Part shown: one piece after another, positions 6,078 through 25,213 of the stretch
Position numbering within the stretch: position 1 is the first letter of the stretch
Layout: each line of letters opens with the position of its first letter
Source: a virus
Lineage: Duplodnaviria > Caudoviricetes
Strand: one strand, 5' to 3'
Virus record (IMG/VR): IMGVR_UViG_3300017908_000287
Coordinates: 1 to 25,213 of that record
Length of the DNA stretch: 25,213 nt
Position numbers and translations under genes: made by a program
Notes under the pieces: generated by a model
Told to the model about the DNA's origin: nothing
Seen by the model: the letters and a program-made list of their open reading frames with translations, nothing else
Database searches by the model: none

Positions 6078-6320
6078 ATGAGAGCAATTTTGTATTCCAA
6101 TAAGAATCAAGAATGTGAGAGGGCAAAGAGTCTTCTATCAAGTGTTGGTGTAGAGTCTATTGAGTATAATCGTGATAATCACTTCACTGACAGAGGATTT
6201 AAATCTGAGTTTGGTGATGAGGCAGAGTATCCACAGGTCACGATTGACTATGGTGGGTTCAGACATCGTGGCGGATTGAAAGATGCGCTACACTTTTTGA
6301 AAGAGAAAGGTCTGATCTAA
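6078..6320 (+). CDS. Glutaredoxin-like protein with degenerate active site, start 6057 or 6078
   Basis: AILYS..NQECERAKSLL...F..EFG..AEYPQV...GG mirrors the glutaredoxin fold, but CxxC is reduced to NQEC. Confidence 0.7.
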   Translation: MRAILYSNKNQECERAKSLLSSVGVESIEYNRDNHFTDRGFKSEFGDEAEYPQVTIDYGGFRHRGGLKDALHFLKEKGLI

Positions 6321-6334
6321 AGAAATAGTAAAAA

Positions 6335-6350
6335 TGTATCACAAGATACA
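6335..6350. promoter_or_regulatory. NtcA-type binding site (GTA-N8-TAC)
   Basis: TGTATCACAAGATACA has GTA at 6336-6338 and TAC at 6347-6349 with extended TGTATC/GATACA symmetry and A-rich flanks. It lies 8 nt upstream of the -35 box. Confidence 0.7.
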
Positions 6351-6357
6351 AAAGAAC

Positions 6358-6386
6358 TTGACTATATAGTTCATGGAGGTTATAAT
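6358..6386 (+). promoter_or_regulatory. Near-consensus sigma70 promoter for the riboswitch operon
   Basis: TTGACT (6358-6363), 17-nt spacer, TATAAT (6381-6386). The predicted start near 6393 coincides with the first RNA repeat. Confidence 0.85.
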
Positions 6387-6392
6387 AAACCT

Positions 6393-6481
6393 ATCGTTCA
6401 TCCAGGAAACTGGACGCAAGTAAGTCGCGGAACGGATCGTTCATCCGTCTTCGGACGGACGCAAACGACTGAAGGAACGGG
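6393..6481 (+). ncRNA. glnA-type glutamine riboswitch-like cis-regulatory RNA with a duplicated or nested aptamer
   Basis: Two copies of ATCGTTCATCC-hairpin-GGACGCAA (6393-6419 with a GAAA loop, 6436-6464 with a cTTCGg loop). Two GAACG strands (6430-6434, 6475-6479) are complementary to CGTTC. Helix AGTCG/CGACT is flanked by AGTA and GAA (loop-E-like). Confidence 0.8.
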
Positions 6482-6542
6482 AAACTCGGATCACCCGTAA
6501 GGGTTAAAGGAGAAAAACCACCCAACTTCAGGAGTAAGACAA

Positions 6543-6710
6543 ATGAACACACTTCAAATCATCAAGAAGCAGATCAACAAAGCATCTGCTGTTCACGATG
6601 CACAGATCACTATCACCAAATATCGTGGTGTTGAGTATTCGTCTAAGAATGTAGAGCGTAAGGATCCTCAGGGAACCTTCTGCTACCGTGGTCGCACCTA
6701 CACCAAGTAA
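6543..6710 (+). CDS. Small DUF4278-like protein with two YRG motifs (55 aa), not in the ORF track
   Basis: AGGAG at 6530-6534. Translation is MNTLQIIKKQINKASAVHDAQITITKYRGVEYSSKNVERKDPQGTFCYRGRTYTK. Confidence 0.85.
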   Translation: MNTLQIIKKQINKASAVHDAQITITKYRGVEYSSKNVERKDPQGTFCYRGRTYTK

Positions 6711-6716
6711 GGAACT

Positions 6717-6812
6717 ATGGAAGCACTACAACTCACAGGATTAATTACCCTGGCATGTATTGCTGGAATGGCTATCATATATGGTGAAATAATTCTCCTT
6801 CATCATACCTAA
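6717..6812 (+). CDS. Single-transmembrane micropeptide (31 aa), not in the ORF track
   Basis: AAGGA directly upstream. Translation is MEALQLTGLITLACIAGMAIIYGEIILLHHT. Confidence 0.7.
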   Translation: MEALQLTGLITLACIAGMAIIYGEIILLHHT

Positions 6813-6823
6813 GGAGAAATTAA

Positions 6824-6988
6824 ATGCTTAGCATCAAACTATGCTATAACCTTCCAGAATACAACCCAGAAATCCACGATCCAGATAGAGTCTTTCGATT
6901 TCTAACTTATCGTGGAGTGAGTTATGCTAAATGGGTTGACCTTAAGTCACTCAGTAAATGCATATCAAGATGGACAGTAACTAAATGA
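6824..6988 (+). CDS. Small protein with LTYRGVSY motif (54 aa), not in the ORF track
   Basis: AAGGAG upstream. Translation is MLSIKLCYNLPEYNPEIHDPDRVFRFLTYRGVSYAKWVDLKSLSKCISRWTVTK. Confidence 0.8.
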   Translation: MLSIKLCYNLPEYNPEIHDPDRVFRFLTYRGVSYAKWVDLKSLSKCISRWTVTK

Positions 6989-7013
6989 GGACCTTGACGG
7001 GTCCTCTTTTTTT
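6987..7013 (+). terminator. Rho-independent terminator closing the small-ORF operon
   Basis: GAGGACCT-TGAC-GGGTCCTC followed by seven T. Confidence 0.88.
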
Positions 7014-7022
7014 ATCTATAAT
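6994..7022 (+). promoter_or_regulatory. Sigma70 promoter embedded in the terminator
   Basis: TTGACG (6994-6999), 17-nt spacer, TATAAT (7017-7022). Confidence 0.7.
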
Positions 7023-16323: not shown

Positions 16324-16506
16324 ATGATCCATATGGATCTTGAGAACTACTTCCGTCTCAATTTTGCCTTAATGCAGTATCATAAATATTCATTAACTGA
16401 AATTGAAAATATGATGCCTTGGGAGAGAGATATCTATGTCGTTCTTCTGAAGCAGCATCTTGAGGAAGAAAAACAAAAGTTAGAGCAGCGAAAGAATGGC
16501 GGCTAA
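16324..16506 (+). CDS. gp51: Baseplate hub assembly protein gp51-like
   Basis: NFALMQYHKYSLTEIENMMPWERDIY, directly after gp26. Confidence 0.85.
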   Translation: MIHMDLENYFRLNFALMQYHKYSLTEIENMMPWERDIYVVLLKQHLEEEKQKLEQRKNGG

Positions 16507-19090
16507 GACTACTGATCCTATTGATATCCTTCTTGAGATGGGTATTGACCTCGACAATCTGTCGGAGGAAGAGGATTATCTTAGTGCCTTAATTGAAGCA
16601 ACCAATGCTTTAACCATTAAGGATCCTAGTGATCCCCGTATTGCACCTCTTCAGAAAGAAATTTTAAAAGTAAGAAAGAAAAGAAAAGAAGCAGACCCTA
16701 AGTTTAGAGTAAGAAAAACTACAGTAAGTCCGGATAGATTTTTCGATAGAAAGAAACCGCAAGAGGAACAATCAAAACCAGTTCCAGGGCAACTGATGAT
16801 TCCTGGAGATACGAGTGGTGCTCTTGTTAAACCAGATAGTTTAAGACCACCCGAAGTTGAAGAAGATGGAGAGAAGATAAAAAAAGAACCAAATATCCTT
16901 CAGGATATTTTGGATGGAATCAATTCTATTATAGGAATACTCAAATCACAGAATAAACTTGATAGGAAGAGAGCAGAGAAAGATAGAAAAAAACTAGAGA
17001 AATCAAAAAGATCTACTAAAGAAGGTAAACTTGAGAAGGGTCCTCTTGAGAAATTTGTAAATCAATCAAAGAAACTTTTAAAACCAGTACAAAGTCTCTT
17101 TGGAGGATTGTTTGAATTTATTAAGAATATTTTGATTGGTAGATTATTGGTGAAAGTTGTTAATTGGATGAGTGATAGTGAAAATCAAGAAAAGTTGAAA
17201 GCGATAGGTAATTTCTTAAAGAATACATGGCCAGCACTACTTGCTGCATACTTATTATTTGGAAATAGTTTAGGTCGATTTGCAGTTAACCTAGTCAAAG
17301 TTATTGGTGGATTTGCAATCAAGTTACTTAAAACTATTATACCTCAACTTTTAACTGCCGTCAAAAAACTTGGATTTAAAAAGAGTATGATGCTTGGTGG
17401 ACTTGCTGTTGGTGGAACAATGCTTGCTGGACGGTTGTTAGATGGTGGAAAGGATGATGTTGATCTGACACAACCAGACGGCAGACAAGGTGCTCCAGGA
17501 TCTGACGGAGCAGATGGTAGACAAGGTGCTTCAGGATCTGACGGAGCAGATGGTAGACAAGGTGCTCCAGGATCTGACGGAGCAGACGGCAAACAAGGTG
17601 CTCCAGGATCTCAGACAGGAGGAAAGACCCCTTATGAAAGAGTAACAGAAGCCGGTTTTGAGGTAATCGCTGCGGATAATGGTTTTATCTCATTTGAAAA
17701 AGAAGGAAGTAAAAGGTCCAGGACTGGAACTTTCACACTTCAAGGTAACACGAAAGAAGAGAGATTTAACAATTACTTTGATGGATCTGATACATTTAGA
17801 ACACTTAAATTAAATGGTGGTGGTCAGGTTCCTGGTAGTGGACCAAACAAGGACACTGTGCCTGCTATGCTGGCACCAGGTGAATTTGTAATGAGCAGGG
17901 GTGCTGTACAGAAATATGGGACAGATACCTTTGCTGCTATGAATGCCGCTGGTGGAGGAACTAATCTACCAAGAAGAATGAATGGTATTACTTATGCTGT
18001 GGGTGGTGGTCTAATGGGGTCCATGAGTGATTATGGATATGAGGAAAAGAATGAGGAGCAATCTCCTACAGTAAAAGGGGAAATGGAGGAAAGAAAAACC
18101 AAAGGAGAGGGAAAAAATAAAGGAGAGGGAAAAGAAAAGCAAACAAATGGTGGAATCTTTGGAAGTATAAAAAGGTTTTTTGGATTTGGTGGATCTAAAT
18201 CTGGTGAAGAGGAAGGAGAGAAGTCTGGTGGTGGAGGAAGTCTCAAGGGGTTAACTGGTCAAGATTTTAGGGACCTTGCATATATTGTCAGTGGTGAAGC
18301 ACAGAGAGGAACTGATGATGAGTACGGAGTTGCTGCAGCAGTTTTAAATAGAGTTGCAGACCCCGCATGGCCGAATACTATTAAGGAAGTGGGATCTCAG
18401 GATGGACAATTTGAGGCAGTGTATACTGGTAAAGCATTTGATGATCCAGAACTAGCAGCAAAACTTGCATCATCTGAGGGACAGGCAAAGATTGTTGAAG
18501 CAATGAAGATGCTCAAGGGCAGAACTGACTTTAAGGGAACGAGTCAGTATGGAAATATGGGATCTGGTGATATAAAATTTTCAGATAGAGGAAATTTCTA
18601 TCATTATAAAGAACAAGTTAGTAAAACAGATCCACCCCCAAGTCCAGTTCCAAACTTTTATCAGAAGTTTATTGGCACTGGTGGACCTGCTGTTTCATTG
18701 AATGGAACGAAATCATCTGCTGGCGGAATAACTGCTTCTCCAGGATCTGGGTCTGGATCTGGATCCCATACAACATCCTTATCAGGTTTGATTGGTGGAT
18801 TTGATAGCAAAATTATGGAATCCCTTAGAGTTTCTGGAGGTGGTGGTAGTAGCATCATTAAAGGAAGTCCAACTTCTGGATCATCCATAGAACCACCACA
18901 TACAACAACACTATCTTCTATTGTGAAAAGAACGGGGTCTGGAATGGGTTCATCTGGATCGTCATCTTCTGGTCAGAATTCTCCAACTAGACCTGCAGAT
19001 GCATCTCCTCCAAATACTATCCCTCCTATTGATGCAGAGGCAATGATATCACAAGAGAAGATAAAGGTCTTAGGAATAGCGGTGGGTTGA
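16496..19090 (+). CDS. Large tail/baseplate hub (tape-measure-like) protein with collagen-like repeats and a SleB/Hydrolase_2-type cell-wall hydrolase domain
   Basis: Coiled-coil N-terminus, G-X-Y repeats, GGQVPG...[14 protein letters not shown] motif, and LAYIVSGEA...[10 protein letters not shown]...[13 protein letters not shown]. Confidence 0.75.
17477..17611 (+). repeat. 36-bp tandem repeat, 3.75 copies, encoding [12 protein letters not shown]
   Basis: Units start at 17477, 17513, 17549 and 17585 and differ at only a few positions. Confidence 0.92.
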
Positions 19091-19091
19091 T

Positions 19092-21686
19092 ATGGCGTTA
19101 CCAGCATTATTAGGAGCAGGGGCAAGAGCTATTGGAGGTAGTATTGTAAAAAGTGTTGCTAAAGATAAGGCAAAGAGTTTTATACAGGGTAAAAAAGCAT
19201 CAACTAACAGACGTGAAGATTCAAATGAACCAACAACAGAGGGAGGTTCTTTAGTAATAAGACCAAAAACATCATTAGTATCACCAAGTTCACTGACTCC
19301 TCCAGAATCGCCAGGTGCCATAATTAATGTAGAAAAAAAATCTGATATATTAAAGGAGATAAGGGATAAGGTTTATCAAATTAATGATATATTGAAGAAT
19401 AAACTTATTGAGGAATCAAAATTATTAGGCAAAGAAAAAAAGGAACAAGAAAAAGTAAAAAGAGGTAAGCAAGAGAGTGAATTAGAAAAAGTAAAGAAGA
19501 AGGATAAGAAGAAAAAAAGTAAACTGAGTCTCCCTGGCACTGGATTATTCAAAGCAATATTTGATTTCATTTCAAATATTTTTATTGGTCGTCTATTATT
19601 TCTAGGTGTAGATGGTGTAGATGGAATACCAGGTATCGGTATTCTTAAAATGATTGGTGGCGTGGTAGAAACTACGATTGATGTTATTATAGGAATTTTT
19701 GATGCTTTTGGGACTTTCTTGATGTGGGGTCAAAAAGCATATGATGCCACTAAAGGATTTTTAAAAGATAACTTTGGTGATGGTGCTGAAAAAGCATTCA
19801 CCGATCTTATGAAAAACTTGAACACTGCATTCAATCTGATCGCTACGATTGGATTACTTACAGCAGCGTTCAATCCGTTTGAAGGTCTGGGAAAAGATAA
19901 GAATAAGACTAAGACAAAATCAAGAAGTGGTATAGATCCAAAGACCAATAAACCAAGGAGAGTAAGACCGACTAACATAGTTGATCCTGATGGAACAATA
20001 AGATCTAAGACATCAGTAGAAACTAAATTAAAAGATATGGGTTTGGCAGACAACCAAATCCGAGAGTATAATAAAGCGCGGACTGGTGGTGCTAATACAT
20101 CTCAAGCACTTACACAAGCAAAGAAAGTAACTCCAGACATTCCTAAACGTGGTGGTTTACTTGGTTTTTTTGCACAAGCAGGTGATAATATAGCAGCAGC
20201 AACGAAAGGTGCAAGAGATTTAGCAGGTAAAGGACTTAAAGCAATCGGTGGAGGACTTGATTATTTGTCCGGAGGAAACCTAGGTAAACTTGGAAACTTT
20301 CTTCAGGATCAATATAAAAATGCTTCTGAGTTCACTAGAAAACAATATGATAATGTTGTTGCCGTAGGTCAAAAACTCAAGAGTAAGTATGATAATGCAG
20401 TAAGCTCAGTAAAAAATGCTATTGGCAATCTAGCAGAGAAAGCACAGCAAAAAATTCTTCAACCTATACTTGATAAAATTAAACCATTTATAGAACCGAT
20501 CATAGAAAAAGCTAAGTCTATGGGTGAGTCGATATTAGAAGTGCTTAAAAAAATACCTGGGTTTGATAATGTTCTTCAAGTATTAAAGAAAAAGGGCATC
20601 AATAGTTTGGGCGATGTTGGTGGGATTGCTAAGAAAGTTGGCGGAAGAGCACTTCCATTTATCGGTGGTTTATTTAACCTTCTGTTTGCATATGATAGAT
20701 TTGCTAGTGGCGATACAATAGGAGGATTACTTGAAACCATATCTGCTGGATTTGATTTCGCTGGACTTGCTCCAGTTTCCATGGGTATTGACGCATATAT
20801 GTTTGCTCGTGATTTTGTTCCTGCAATACAAGAGACTGAAGAGAGTGCAATAAACGCCCTGGGATTGGGTGGATTTAAGTCCAATGTTGATAAAGTGGTA
20901 TCGAAACTTCCTGATCTTGGGACAATTTTTAGTAATGTCATGGGTAAAAAGGACGAATCTGGAAAGGCAGGAACAAGTCTTGCCTCTACAACCACAGGCA
21001 CTGAAACTGATGATAATGCATCAAACCTTGCAGGAGAAGCAGGTAAGTTTATTGAAAAGAATCTTGAGTCTGCTGCGGTTGCTGCGGATGGATATGGAGA
21101 TTATAATAGAATCACAGAGCACCCAGACTTTGGTGGCGTAAGAGGGACACATGCTACAGGTTCATATCACTATGTCAATAGGGCAATAGACATTGGTGCA
21201 TTTACTAACGAGCAAGAACCTATTGTTAATGTATTGAATCAGTTTAATCAGATGAAAGGTGTTCAACCTAAGGAACTTATTACTGGTTCTCAATTCCCAG
21301 GTACAACGATGGTGGATCCTGGTGGTCATGATGATCATGTTCATGTTGCATATAGACTTGGAGGACTTGTAAAAGGACTTACACATGCAATGCTTGGAGA
21401 AGAGGGTCCAGAATATGTTATAGATACTGATTCGTATGAGGCAATCGAGAGTGCTTATCCTGGATTGTTTGACGCCATTAACACTGCGAAAGGTCCAGAT
21501 GCTGTAACTAATCTCATGGACTTTACAAGTTATGAAAGACCACAAGAACCGGATATGGCAATGGCAGGAGGTGAGAGCGAAACGCCAACATATTCTGGTG
21601 GCGATGATACATCGTCAATGATTAGTTCAACTCCAACACTATCAAAAACTAAAGACAATTCTTTTGAAATTACTTACAAGTTTTAG
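19092..21686 (+). CDS. Large tail/baseplate hub (tape-measure-like) protein with a putative Zn-peptidase (M15-like) domain
   Basis: The N-terminus resembles the preceding ORF. It contains HATGSYHYVNRAIDI...HDDHVHVAY and GGLV...AMLGEEGPEYVI. Confidence 0.7.
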   Translation: MALPALLGAGARAIGGSIVKSVAKDKAKSFIQGKKASTNRREDSNEPTTEGGSLVIRPKTSLVSPSSLTPPESPGAIINVEKKSDILKEIRDKVYQINDILKNKLIEESKLLGKEKKEQEKVKRGKQESELEKVKKKDKKKKSKLSLPGTGLFKAIFDFISNIFIGRLLFLGVDGVDGIPGIGILKMIGGVVETTIDVIIGIFDAFGTFLMWGQKAYDATKGFLKDNFGDGAEKAFTDLMKNLNTAFNLIATIGLLTAAFNPFEGLGKDKNKTKTKSRSGIDPKTNKPRRVRPTNIVDPDGTIRSKTSVETKLKDMGLADNQIREYNKARTGGANTSQALTQAKKVTPDIPKRGGLLGFFAQAGDNIAAATKGARDLAGKGLKAIGGGLDYLSGGNLGKLGNFLQDQYKNASEFTRKQYDNVVAVGQKLKSKYDNAVSSVKNAIGNLAEKAQQKILQPILDKIKPFIEPIIEKAKSMGESILEVLKKIPGFDNVLQVLKKKGINSLGDVGGIAKKVGGRALPFIGGLFNLLFAYDRFASGDTIGGLLETISAGFDFAGLAPVSMGIDAYMFARDFVPAIQETEESAINALGLGGFKSNVDKVVSKLPDLGTIFSNVMGKKDESGKAGTSLASTTTGTETDDNASNLAGEAGKFIEKNLESAAVAADGYGDYNRITEHPDFGGVRGTHATGSYHYVNRAIDIGAFTNEQEPIVNVLNQFNQMKGVQPKELITGSQFPGTTMVDPGGHDDHVHVAYRLGGLVKGLTHAMLGEEGPEYVIDTDSYEAIESAYPGLFDAINTAKGPDAVTNLMDFTSYERPQEPDMAMAGGESETPTYSGGDDTSSMISSTPTLSKTKDNSFEITYKF

Positions 21687-23309: not shown

Positions 23310-25213
23310 ATGCAACAGGGAGCACTATTTGATTCCGGTATTTTAGGTACAAGTTTTCACTGGTGGATTGGGCAGATCGCTGACGATTCTACCTGGAGAG
23401 AAAACATATCTAGTAAACCTACGGAATCACCCTATGAAAATAAAGGTTGGGGTAGAAGATATCGAGTAAGAATACTTGGTCTTCATGATCAAGGTGAAAA
23501 TGAAATTCCATCCGATAAACTTCCCTGGGCACAGATTATGTATCCGGTGACTGCCGGTAGTAGCAATACTAATAGTTTGCAATCACCAAATCTTCGTCAG
23601 GGAAATATGGTATTTGGGTTCTTCCTTGATGGTCAGGAGATGAGAATCCCTGTTATTATGGGAGTATTAGGGAATAATGCTCAGACAAATGGTGCTACAA
23701 CGATTGGAGACAATCGTGTTACTAATGATCAACCAGGATCTCTTGCGGTTTCTGGATACGCGACAGGAGCGAAACCTAAGGATCCTGCTACAGGAGAAAA
23801 AGAAACACCACCCGATAGTGATTTATCCGCCGTAAGACCCGGAGCACCGCCAGAAAGTGCTCCTATTCCACCGAATGTTAAACTGAATAAGTATGGATTA
23901 AGACCAGATTTAACTCCCACCAGGGCACAATTTGCGGACGCTCAAGCAGCAAGACAAGAGGCAGCAAGAAAAGGTCTTTCCTTTGTAGAGACTGAAGATC
24001 TTGTAATGAAGAGAGTTGCTAAAGGAATAAAGGATAGAAAAAACGAGCACGAGAGTCCTACAACACCACCATCAGCACCAGCATATAGAGAGAGTCCTGA
24101 TGTTCAGCAAATCACTGCCGCTGATGTAAAAAGAGACGAAGAATATAAGAAAAAAACTGCCCTCGCAAAACCAGATGATCTTATTCAATCTGCAATTAAA
24201 TCAATACAAATAGTCATCGATAATTTAACGGAAAGCATAGATAAACTTCTGCATAGTATTCAAAGTTATACTGATGCAGTTTCTGATTTAGCAACCCCAC
24301 TAGAAGACATAATGCATAAAGGAGCATGTGAGCTGACAAAATATATGAAAGTTATATTTGATAAGGTGATGGAGTTTATATTAAAACAACTAAATGTTGT
24401 AATGTCAGAAGTTATATCAGCACTACCAACAAGTCTTAGAAATAACTTTGGAGATTTAAAAGAAATTATTACCCAACAGATAACTGGAATGTATAATCAA
24501 ATGACTGGTGGATTATGTGAACAAATTAAAGGAGTTCTTTCCGAATCTCTTAATTCAAATTTTAAGAATGATGAGAGAGCTCCCGCAACTGTATCTGATT
24601 TAGTAGAGGATGCAAGAAAATTAGCAAATAATAATCCTCAGGGTTTCAAAAAATTTAGAACAAAACCAAAAGTTTCGGTATGTCAGGCAGAGACACTTAC
24701 AGCAACACTCTTAGCAAAAAATAAAAAGGAAATCGATAAAGCAAATACAAACGTAATTAGAAATGTTAATTCCTACATTGATGGACTTCAAAGTCAAATG
24801 GGTTCTATAAGTGGATTAATTTCTTCTGGTAGTGATGCTATCAGTGGGGGTATAGGTGCATTTTCTGCTGCTGGTGATTTTATGGATACTGCCTCTCAAG
24901 TTTCTAATGGAATGGATGGAGTATTAAATATGATTCCGGACATTAGTTCAGGACTTAGTGGTGCGTTAGACTTTAAAAATATAATCTATAGTATTTTCCC
25001 TGGTGAATTGGAACCAAAGAAAGCTCTGTCTGATTTTTATCAATTAGCAACTGGTGGTTCCGGCACTGGTGATAAAGAAACTCCATCTGTACCAGCTATT
25101 GGAGAATATATAAAAAGAGATTCTATCTCTGGGGTCGAAAATCGCAAGACTGATAGAGAGTTCTTTGGTCAAGTAGAGTCTGTTCCAGATTTTGCACAAC
25201 CTACTACGAGCAC
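23310..25213 (+). CDS. gp5: Baseplate hub/spike protein gp5, N-terminal part, 3'-truncated and not in the ORF track
   Basis: Hand translation gives MQQGALFDSGILGTSFHWWIGQIADD...GRRYRVRILGLH...LPWAQ...GNMVFGFFLDG...PVIMGVLG (gp5 OB-fold). The same frame is open at the window end. Confidence 0.9.
   Translation, partial: MQQGALFDSGILGTSFHWWIGQIADDSTWRENISSKPTESPYENKGWGRRYRVRILGLHDQGENEIPSDKLPWAQIMYPVTAGSSNTNSLQSPNLRQGNMVFGFFLDGQEMRIPVIMGVLGNNAQTNGATTIGDNRVTNDQPGSLAVSGYATGAKPKDPATGEKETPPDSDLSAVRPGAPPESAPIPPNVKLNKYGLRPDLTPTRAQFADAQAARQEAARKGLSFVETEDLVMKRVAKGIKDRKNEHESPTTPPSAPAYRESPDVQQITAADVKRDEEYKKKTALAKPDDLIQSAIKSIQIVIDNLTESIDKLLHSIQSYTDAVSDLATPLEDIMHKGACELTKYMKVIFDKVMEFILKQLNVVMSEVISALPTSLRNNFGDLKEIITQQITGMYNQMTGGLCEQIKGVLSESLNSNFKNDERAPATVSDLVEDARKLANNNPQGFKKFRTKPKVSVCQAETLTATLLAKNKKEIDKANTNVIRNVNSYIDGLQSQMGSISGLISSGSDAISGGIGAFSAAGDFMDTASQVSNGMDGVLNMIPDISSGLSGALDFKNIIYSIFPGELEPKKALSDFYQLATGGSGTGDKETPSVPAIGEYIKRDSISGVENRKTDREFFGQVESVPDFAQPTTS

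Follow-up and report, generated by a model that had tools for sequence, protein, structure and literature searches.

A predicted nested variant of the glutamine-I riboswitch class with a putative second pocket in a T4-like marine cyanophage

We analysed a 25,213-nt stretch of viral DNA (the window) from a T4-like marine cyanophage, in which thyX, phoH, and genes for a ssDNA-binding protein and a tail protein lie near a short structured element at positions 6393-6483. The element is real and is best classed as a variant of the known glutamine-I riboswitch class; its nested topology is well supported by the sequences of its relatives, and two-site cooperative binding appears likely. Our best overall explanation, which we favour with modest confidence, is a T4-like cyanophage glutamine-I riboswitch in nested form that would bind two glutamines and free the ribosome site of an IF17-like gene.

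The element and its predicted operon

The Rfam glnA model (RF01739) matches 6393-6483 with 46.3 bits under permissive filters (gathering score 35, E 2.3e-7), in an alignment that represents one aptamer and places the inner 42 nt as an insert in P3. The resemblance thus exceeds what chance would give. A reading made from the sequence alone had described two copies of ATCGTTCATCC with differing, fully paired hairpins, two GAACGG strands, and a single AGTCG/CGACT helix with loop-E-like flanks. All of this is in place. The copies start at 6393 and 6436 and their hairpins lie at 6401-6414 and 6444-6459; GAACGG starts at 6430 and 6475; and there is only one shared helix, AGTCG at 6423-6427 with CGACT at 6466-6470, flanked by AGTA (6419-6422) and GAAG (6471-6474). 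The outer core has the loop E of RF01739 at the sequence level (AGUA/GAA), its three-way junction of P1, P2 and P3 (with compensatory changes among relatives), and its long-range Watson-Crick pair and pocket letters C1, G2, G22, C58 and G59 (contacts from PMC6698751).

The two-core layout occurs once in the whole window, as a compact, gene-free form of 88 nt in which neither P2 loop holds the gene found there in many relatives; no homologue of those loop genes was found in the window (best E 0.054). The element also lies within contigs of two other studies, one without differences (X8 record 24, 6259-6636) and one with two (X5 record 9, 6204-6496), so it is real DNA and not an assembly artefact. 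The same upstream half is present in 87 of the 120 viral loci that have the 14-nt junction. Energy folding of 6385-6490 alone was uninformative (MFE z -1.35). The features are as follows, with relatives meaning the 181 elements described in the next section.

6358..6386, plus strand: sigma-70-type promoter-like site (TTGACT, 17 nt, TATAAT; motif match, 11/12)
6395..6400, plus strand: outer P1 5' strand, CGTTC plus A; pocket C1 and G2 in glutamine-II numbering; 6399 pairs with 6475
6401..6414, plus strand: P2a hairpin, 5 bp with GAAA loop, fully paired; a whole small gene instead in 33/181 relatives
6415..6422, plus strand: junction strand of the outer core, with G6416 assigned to a triple, C6417 to the long-range pair (partner G6480), and AGTA as one side of loop E
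6423..6427, plus strand: shared helix P3, 5' strand
6428..6437, plus strand: inner core, permuted first piece; G6429, GAACG at 6430-6434, loop G6435-A-T; G6435-C6462 pair predicted
6438..6443, plus strand: inner P1 second strand, CGTTC plus A; 6442 pairs with 6430
6444..6459, plus strand: P2b hairpin, 6 bp with UUCG loop, fully paired; a whole small gene instead in 106/181 relatives
6460..6465, plus strand: junction strand of the inner core (C-G-C-A-A-A), with G6461 assigned to a triple and C6462 to the long-range pair; loop E absent
6466..6480, plus strand: P3 3' strand (6466-6470), loop E GAAG (6471-6474), outer P1 3' strand (6475-6479) and G6480, from covariation and folding
6469..6474, plus strand: predicted switching strand, overlapping the P3 3' strand and the loop E GAAG
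6487..6510, plus strand: optional hairpin module with a GNRA cap and 4 bp, placed after the aptamer and before the ribosome site; matched by 22 of 257 distinct downstream sequences
6526..6534, plus strand: CTTCAG, which is complementary to 6469-6474 and overlaps the Shine-Dalgarno AGGAG (6530-6534), from sequence and folding
6543..6710, plus strand: 55-aa DUF4278-like (IF17-like) peptide with two YRG motifs, the likely regulated gene (Pfam, PHROG)
6717..6812, plus strand: ORF for a 31-aa hydrophobic peptide, no family match of note; probably the same operon
6824..6988, plus strand: 54-aa ORF with one YRG motif (match to phrog_6192); probably the same operon
6987..7016, plus strand: intrinsic-terminator-like hairpin closing the operon, overlapping the next promoter-like site (6994-7022)

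The promoter-like site would place the transcription start at the very beginning of the element (about 6392-6393). By a loose test, 127/177 relatives have a -10-like hexamer 6-9 nt upstream together with a -35-like motif. The peptide at 6543-6710 matches phrog_545 (E 2e-30), and Pfam PF14105 below its cut-off (23.1 against 25.3 bits, E 9e-5); a YRG peptide lies downstream in 151/181 relatives. Nineteen of the 22 matches to the module at 6487-6510 are fully paired, with seven stem types. The module reads CGGA-TC followed by a purine-rich strand ending in AAGG. In this it recalls the junction strands (CGGA...GAAGG), and it could represent a vestigial third core or a hairpin used for docking. The loop region of the terminator-like hairpin carries the -35 hexamer of the next promoter-like site, and a similar overlap is visible in relatives. 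Elsewhere in the window, the adjacent ORFs 16496-19090 and 19092-21686 each encode exactly 864 aa, the first matching phrog_35029 and an endolysin-like family, and the end of the window (23835-25213) includes about 1.2 kb with almost no ORF of at least 50 aa and no Rfam match.

Relatives and the predicted nested fold

A blastn search with 6340-6720 returned 437 phage records (354 named Synechococcus, 63 'Cyanophage', 12 Prochlorococcus and 8 'Marine'), and the cultured phage Bellamy (Synechococcus WH8109) has a layout near-identical to that of the window. Relatives were collected in eight scans, six of viral contigs and one each of metagenomes and genomes. The first seven scans and the window gave 336 core matches, which reduced to 181 distinct complete elements; 98 matches had one end missing (locus edge or chance) and the remainder were duplicates. 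Five of the scans targeted rare variants and the set of 181 is variant-enriched, not a random sample; in no scan were both positions of a tested pair fixed. The short-anchor scan for a middle base other than G returned mainly chance matches, and the P1-variant scan was mainly noise with 10 informative elements. The 53 loci of the genome-contig scan were also mainly chance; the true matches lie on short MAG or single-cell contigs, some with non-cyanobacterial names, and may be phage DNA.

Of 10 test loci run in Rfam's standard mode, four gave no match (Bellamy, S-SM2, Sf-CH8 and L034), four gave one half, and two gave two separate matches; the element was missed in three cultured phages. One locus (L623) holds a lone second half with a loop gene, lacking the first half or promoter-proximal core, which is the pattern expected from deletion between repeats.

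Two folds had been put forward from the sequence. In fold (a), an outer three-way junction has its P3 capped by a circularly permuted inner core; in fold (b), two tandem aptamers are joined by a loop-loop helix formed by AGTCG and CGACT. The relatives distinguish between them. Three pairs of the nested fold are Watson-Crick in all 181 elements, namely the outer long-range pair 6417-6480 (C-G in 140, G-C in 41), 6399-6475 in outer P1 (C-G in 171, U-A in 10) and 6430-6442 in inner P1 (three types, in 134, 41 and 6). The inner long-range pair 6435-6462 is Watson-Crick in 153, with 5 G-U, 21 A-C and 2 A-G. In contrast, the tandem pairs fail in 50-69 of the 181, being Watson-Crick in 112 (6417-6435), 113 (6462-6480) and 131 each (6399-6430 and 6442-6475).

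To follow these changes we used a tree of the flanking sequences (FastTree), for which 151 of the 181 rows had enough flank. The outer long-range pair changes seven times on this tree, jointly every time, and 6399-6475 changes twice. Among independent pairs on supported branches, joint changes make up 3/3 for the outer long-range pair, 6/6 for the inner long-range pair (p 0.03) and 7/7 for inner P1 (p 0.016), but a fraction of 0.1-0.4 for the tandem pairings. The number of independent events can be given only roughly, since the elements are related and recombination of modules is apparent; block recombination can inflate the counts for the inner pairs. In an alignment of 33 gene-free elements (the window plus 32 of the 50 relatives that lack loop genes), the outer long-range pair forms in 33/33 and the inner in 24/33, against 18/33 for each tandem long-range pair. 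The sequence-only reading had named a lack of covariation in the AGTCG/CGACT helix as grounds for giving up its proposal; the shared helix P3 occurs in 59 types with compensatory changes, with A-C pairs frequent in the longer forms. These patterns make it very highly probable that the family folds as in (a), with the inner core circularly permuted. Fold (b) is rejected as the family fold. That rejection holds for the family, not formally for the molecule encoded in the window, whose own letters are compatible with both folds; computed energies favour the nested fold (-28.3 against -21.2 kcal/mol, the tandem fold being scored without its pseudoknot).

Long P2 loops are present in 130/181 relatives (P2b only in 97, P2a only in 24, both in 9), and all 139 such loops hold an ORF that starts 2-15 nt into the stem region. 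These ORFs show a coding pattern of substitution (260 pairs; 2774 changes at third, 1495 at first and 634 at second positions) and match PHROGs 504, 6471 and 13397 in four of six cases tested; one is annotated as a gene in S-SM2. Related ORFs and identical hairpins are found in either P2 slot. At six loci (L006, L007, L009, L021, L034 and L675:906-1073), P2a, P2b or both are filled by whole genes of 49-92 codons with two cysteines. Most P2b genes continue past the inner junction, ending on the TGA or TAA that opens loop E.

The inner core as a putative second pocket and predicted switching

By homology, the outer pocket very probably binds L-glutamine. For the inner core we used a scan that fixed only the outer 3' end, which returned 120 matches (115 distinct). 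The upstream loop-E half is present in 107 of the 115, and in all 107 the inner core is there with every glutamine-contacting letter kept, while the loop that joins the inner strands is 3 to 6 nt long (its first letter always G) and the outermost P1 pair is flipped in three. The other eight comprise five cut by a locus end, one chance-like match, one lone second half, and one that is irregular or out of range. In the glutamine-II structure the ligand contacts are C1, G18, C39 and G40, the long-range pair is C19:G41, and C5:G36 is among the non-conserved pairs (PMC6698751). All 17 core letters named for that structure match in both cores of the window, and the varying pair of the inner core is the equivalent of C5:G36. 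Judged by its letters, the inner core has the pattern of a working pocket, and this conservation makes it fairly probable that it binds a second glutamine. Cooperativity between the two pockets, which our model would allow, is a more tentative proposal.

The strongest alternative is that the fold is nested and the outer pocket alone binds, the inner core being a structural 'ghost' left after duplication, as in glycine riboswitch singlets, or serving mainly, in relatives, to hold the start codon of a loop gene. Ghost aptamers have been described for glycine riboswitches (PMC9481103), and a gene start lies inside P2b in 106/181 relatives. The inner core has no loop E in the window, where its junction strands are CG and CGCAAA, and none on the inner side in 165/181 relatives (16 have loop E on both sides); the supports of class II, a P2 stem and an A33:G42 pair, are likewise absent from it. 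In 23/181 relatives the inner long-range position is A (A-C in 21, A-G in 2), neither Watson-Crick nor G-U. However, the pocket letters are invariant in 107/107 beside a loop and an outermost P1 pair that vary, as in functional pockets, the inner long-range pair covaries in every independent comparison, and the inner core is retained in gene-free elements such as that of the window. We regard a ghost as unlikely, although it is the alternative that fares best.

The nested reading with two working pockets can be set out as a mechanism. The element would be one pseudo-symmetric unit, with the outer three-way junction and the permuted inner core at the two ends of the shared helix. P2a, P2b and the inner hairpin would be pre-formed, and P3, loop E and outer P1 would compete with an anti-ribosome-site helix. 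Because both pockets need P3, binding at one would help the other, and binding of two glutamines would make the ribosome site accessible on the IF17-like peptide gene that follows.

The proposed anti-ribosome-site helix (6469-6474 with 6526-6531) has a predicted probability of 0.98-1.0 at six transcript lengths in the ligand-free state, and the 5' strand is also able to pair with the start codon. With the nested fold forced, positions 6526-6545 become more open (mean unpaired probability 0.64-0.75, against about 0.47 otherwise). ViennaRNA, whose energy model leaves out loop E, triples, Mg2+ and ligand, places this forced state 8-10.5 kcal/mol above the free ensemble. In relatives with a C-G outer long-range pair, at least five of the six anti-ribosome-site pairs are possible in 89/123, compared with 102 at the overlapping +1 register and 0 at the other seven; the variable position of the helix is G-C in 17, G-U in 37, A-U in 32 and A-C in 0 of 86 cases. 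The aptamer would be complete about 45 nt before the rival strand is made, and control may therefore be kinetic. Glutamine-activated translation of DUF4278 genes is known from gifB and a Prochlorococcus leader, both ON switches, and the short homologues lack the C-terminal part that IF17 needs in Synechocystis to inhibit glutamine synthetase (PMC6212724). The gifB precedent and the predicted pairing of the 3' strand beside the ribosome site without ligand make an ON switch for translation the likely mode of control. In four RNA runs, one contig covers 6417-6543 with 0 differences and none extends 5' of 6411; these contigs are not counted as expression because they show neither strand nor start and DNA carry-over is possible.

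It is quite improbable that glutamine is bound in the nested fold with control exerted on mRNA stability or processing, or by an OFF switch. The element does begin at the predicted 5' end of the mRNA, and the 6-bp anti-ribosome-site helix is nearly absent from the G-C class (4/41), where the arrangement differs. Predicted Shine-Dalgarno opening is weak and mixed among 47 gene-free relatives, rising by more than 0.1 in 19, falling in 6, and hardly changing in the C-G class to which the window belongs. Against this stand the register-specific complementarity beside the Shine-Dalgarno described above and the translational ON switching of both host leaders of DUF4278 genes tested in PMC6212724.

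The tandem fold (b), with each aptamer closing its own P1 and the AGTCG/CGACT helix joining their loops, is a shade less probable again, even as an alternative state of the window sequence. In its favour, all tandem pairs are complementary in the window, the halves receive separate Rfam scores in relatives, and glutamine-II shows strand exchange in crystals and is functional when split in two (PMC6698751). Against it, the failures of tandem pairs among relatives have no counterpart in three of the nested pairs, which are Watson-Crick throughout, and tandem P1 has a probability of at most 0.04 in the free ensemble of the window.

The sequence-only reading had also noted CGCAA...AACGG in both copies as an apparent compensatory swap of the long-range G-C pair and had raised altered ligand specificity. 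The letters are as it described, but they are not unusual. Although the RF01739 consensus is G-C and the ligand side chain in glutamine-II stacks on C19, the swapped position (PMC6698751), the least probable of the alternatives is that the RNA senses a ligand other than glutamine, since glutamine-II with exactly C19:G41 binds L-glutamine (Kd 190 uM, PMC6698751), ordinary single glnA RNAs of the 2010 alignment (PMC2864571) have C-G, and both orientations occur within the family ahead of the same peptide type. Altered specificity is thus not supported, and there is no reason to expect another ligand.

Comparison with known systems

No description of a nested or permuted glutamine aptamer was found in the full-text literature searched. 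A 2017 survey identified two glutamine aptamers among cyanophage genomes and described riboswitches as rare in phages (PMC5473149). PMC9964418 and PMC9004378 give phage glnA matches, with no comments on structure in the excerpts; their S-CREM1 match is 99 nt long and would fit a nested element. The excerpts of PMC12510878, PMC12379486 and PMC6316151 add nothing on topology.

A broader proposal has several parts: that a permuted pocket in its parent's P3 arm takes up a second glutamine, with cooperativity transmitted by the shared helix, that many published 'tandem' glnA doublets (in phages and marine proteobacterial genomes) have the same interlocked fold, that these are among the commonest phage riboswitches, and that P2 loops are exchangeable slots for whole small genes. 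Taken jointly we put this forward as possible, with somewhat less than even confidence. If it is true, nesting by permutation would be a new route to two-site sensing in riboswitches, and doublets described as independent and pseudo-cooperative may turn out to form a single fold. The proposal is also relevant to the frequency of phage riboswitches, as an estimated 2,500 or so stored viral stretches hold one 16-nt anchor, compared with the two examples of the 2017 survey. The element further suggests that the nitrogen status of the host is sensed by cyanophages as infection begins. The compact 88-nt form is well suited to ITC and crystallography, and together with the Bellamy layout it makes the nested-switch reading directly testable.

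The closest known system is glutamine-I (RF01739; the Synechocystis gifB/IF17 leader, PMC6212724). The window shares its three-way junction, P1 (CGUUC/GAACG), P2, P3, loop E (AGUA/GAA) and long-range pair, precedes a DUF4278-type gene, and scores above the Rfam cut-off. It differs in being phage-encoded and in having P3 capped by a second, permuted core instead of a loop.

Published 'tandem' glnA RNAs (PMC2864571, PMC9481103) likewise have two cores a few nucleotides apart, and their halves are of the same P3 types, as rows of the 2010 alignment. Those halves were aligned as separate aptamers without P3, whereas the covariation here indicates exchanged strands and one unit. The exact junction motifs were not found in the excerpt of that alignment, probably because halves are entered as separate gapped rows. 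In PMC9481103, 157 glnA doublets were classed as pseudo-cooperative, and the word 'nested' is absent from the excerpt. A pseudo-cooperative tandem would consist of two independently folding aptamers in series, at odds with the failure of the tandem pairs, and each would have a separate expression platform; no terminator or ribosome site was found between the cores. Sixteen doubles with two loop E motifs are unable to form P3 within each half, and in most of them the halves pair with each other; Rfam gives two of these doubles as two matches each. Five loci with loop E on both sides (L335, L378, L394, L406 and L434), again with halves that pair with each other and do not form a P3 of their own, precede a different small protein, ending in WDKYY; L406 and L434, two-loop-E doubles, are on contigs labelled proteobacterial.

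Glutamine-II (Downstream-peptide, RF01704; PMC6698751) resembles both cores at C1-A6, C17-A20 and G35-G41, including C19:G41, and also precedes YRG peptides. The window differs in having neither the downstream P2 pseudoknot stem nor A33:G42. Its RF01704 score is below the cut-off (27.7 against 33 bits); for the P2 pseudoknot 3' of G41 the Rfam alignment has six mismatched pairs, and A6436 directly follows the inner G6435.

The c-di-AMP (ydaO) riboswitch also forms two pseudo-symmetric pockets in one fold (PMC9481103). Its ligand and fold are different, and it has no member with a single-pocket module, whereas single glnA aptamers exist. Natural circularly permuted RNAs (PMC10085705) share the swapping of the 5' and 3' parts of a conserved core. 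The introduction of that 2023 source, as excerpted, lists ribozymes, 5S rRNA, group II introns, tmRNA, tRNA and SRP RNA and no natural riboswitch aptamer; if the nested reading is true, the inner core would add a natural permuted aptamer to the list.
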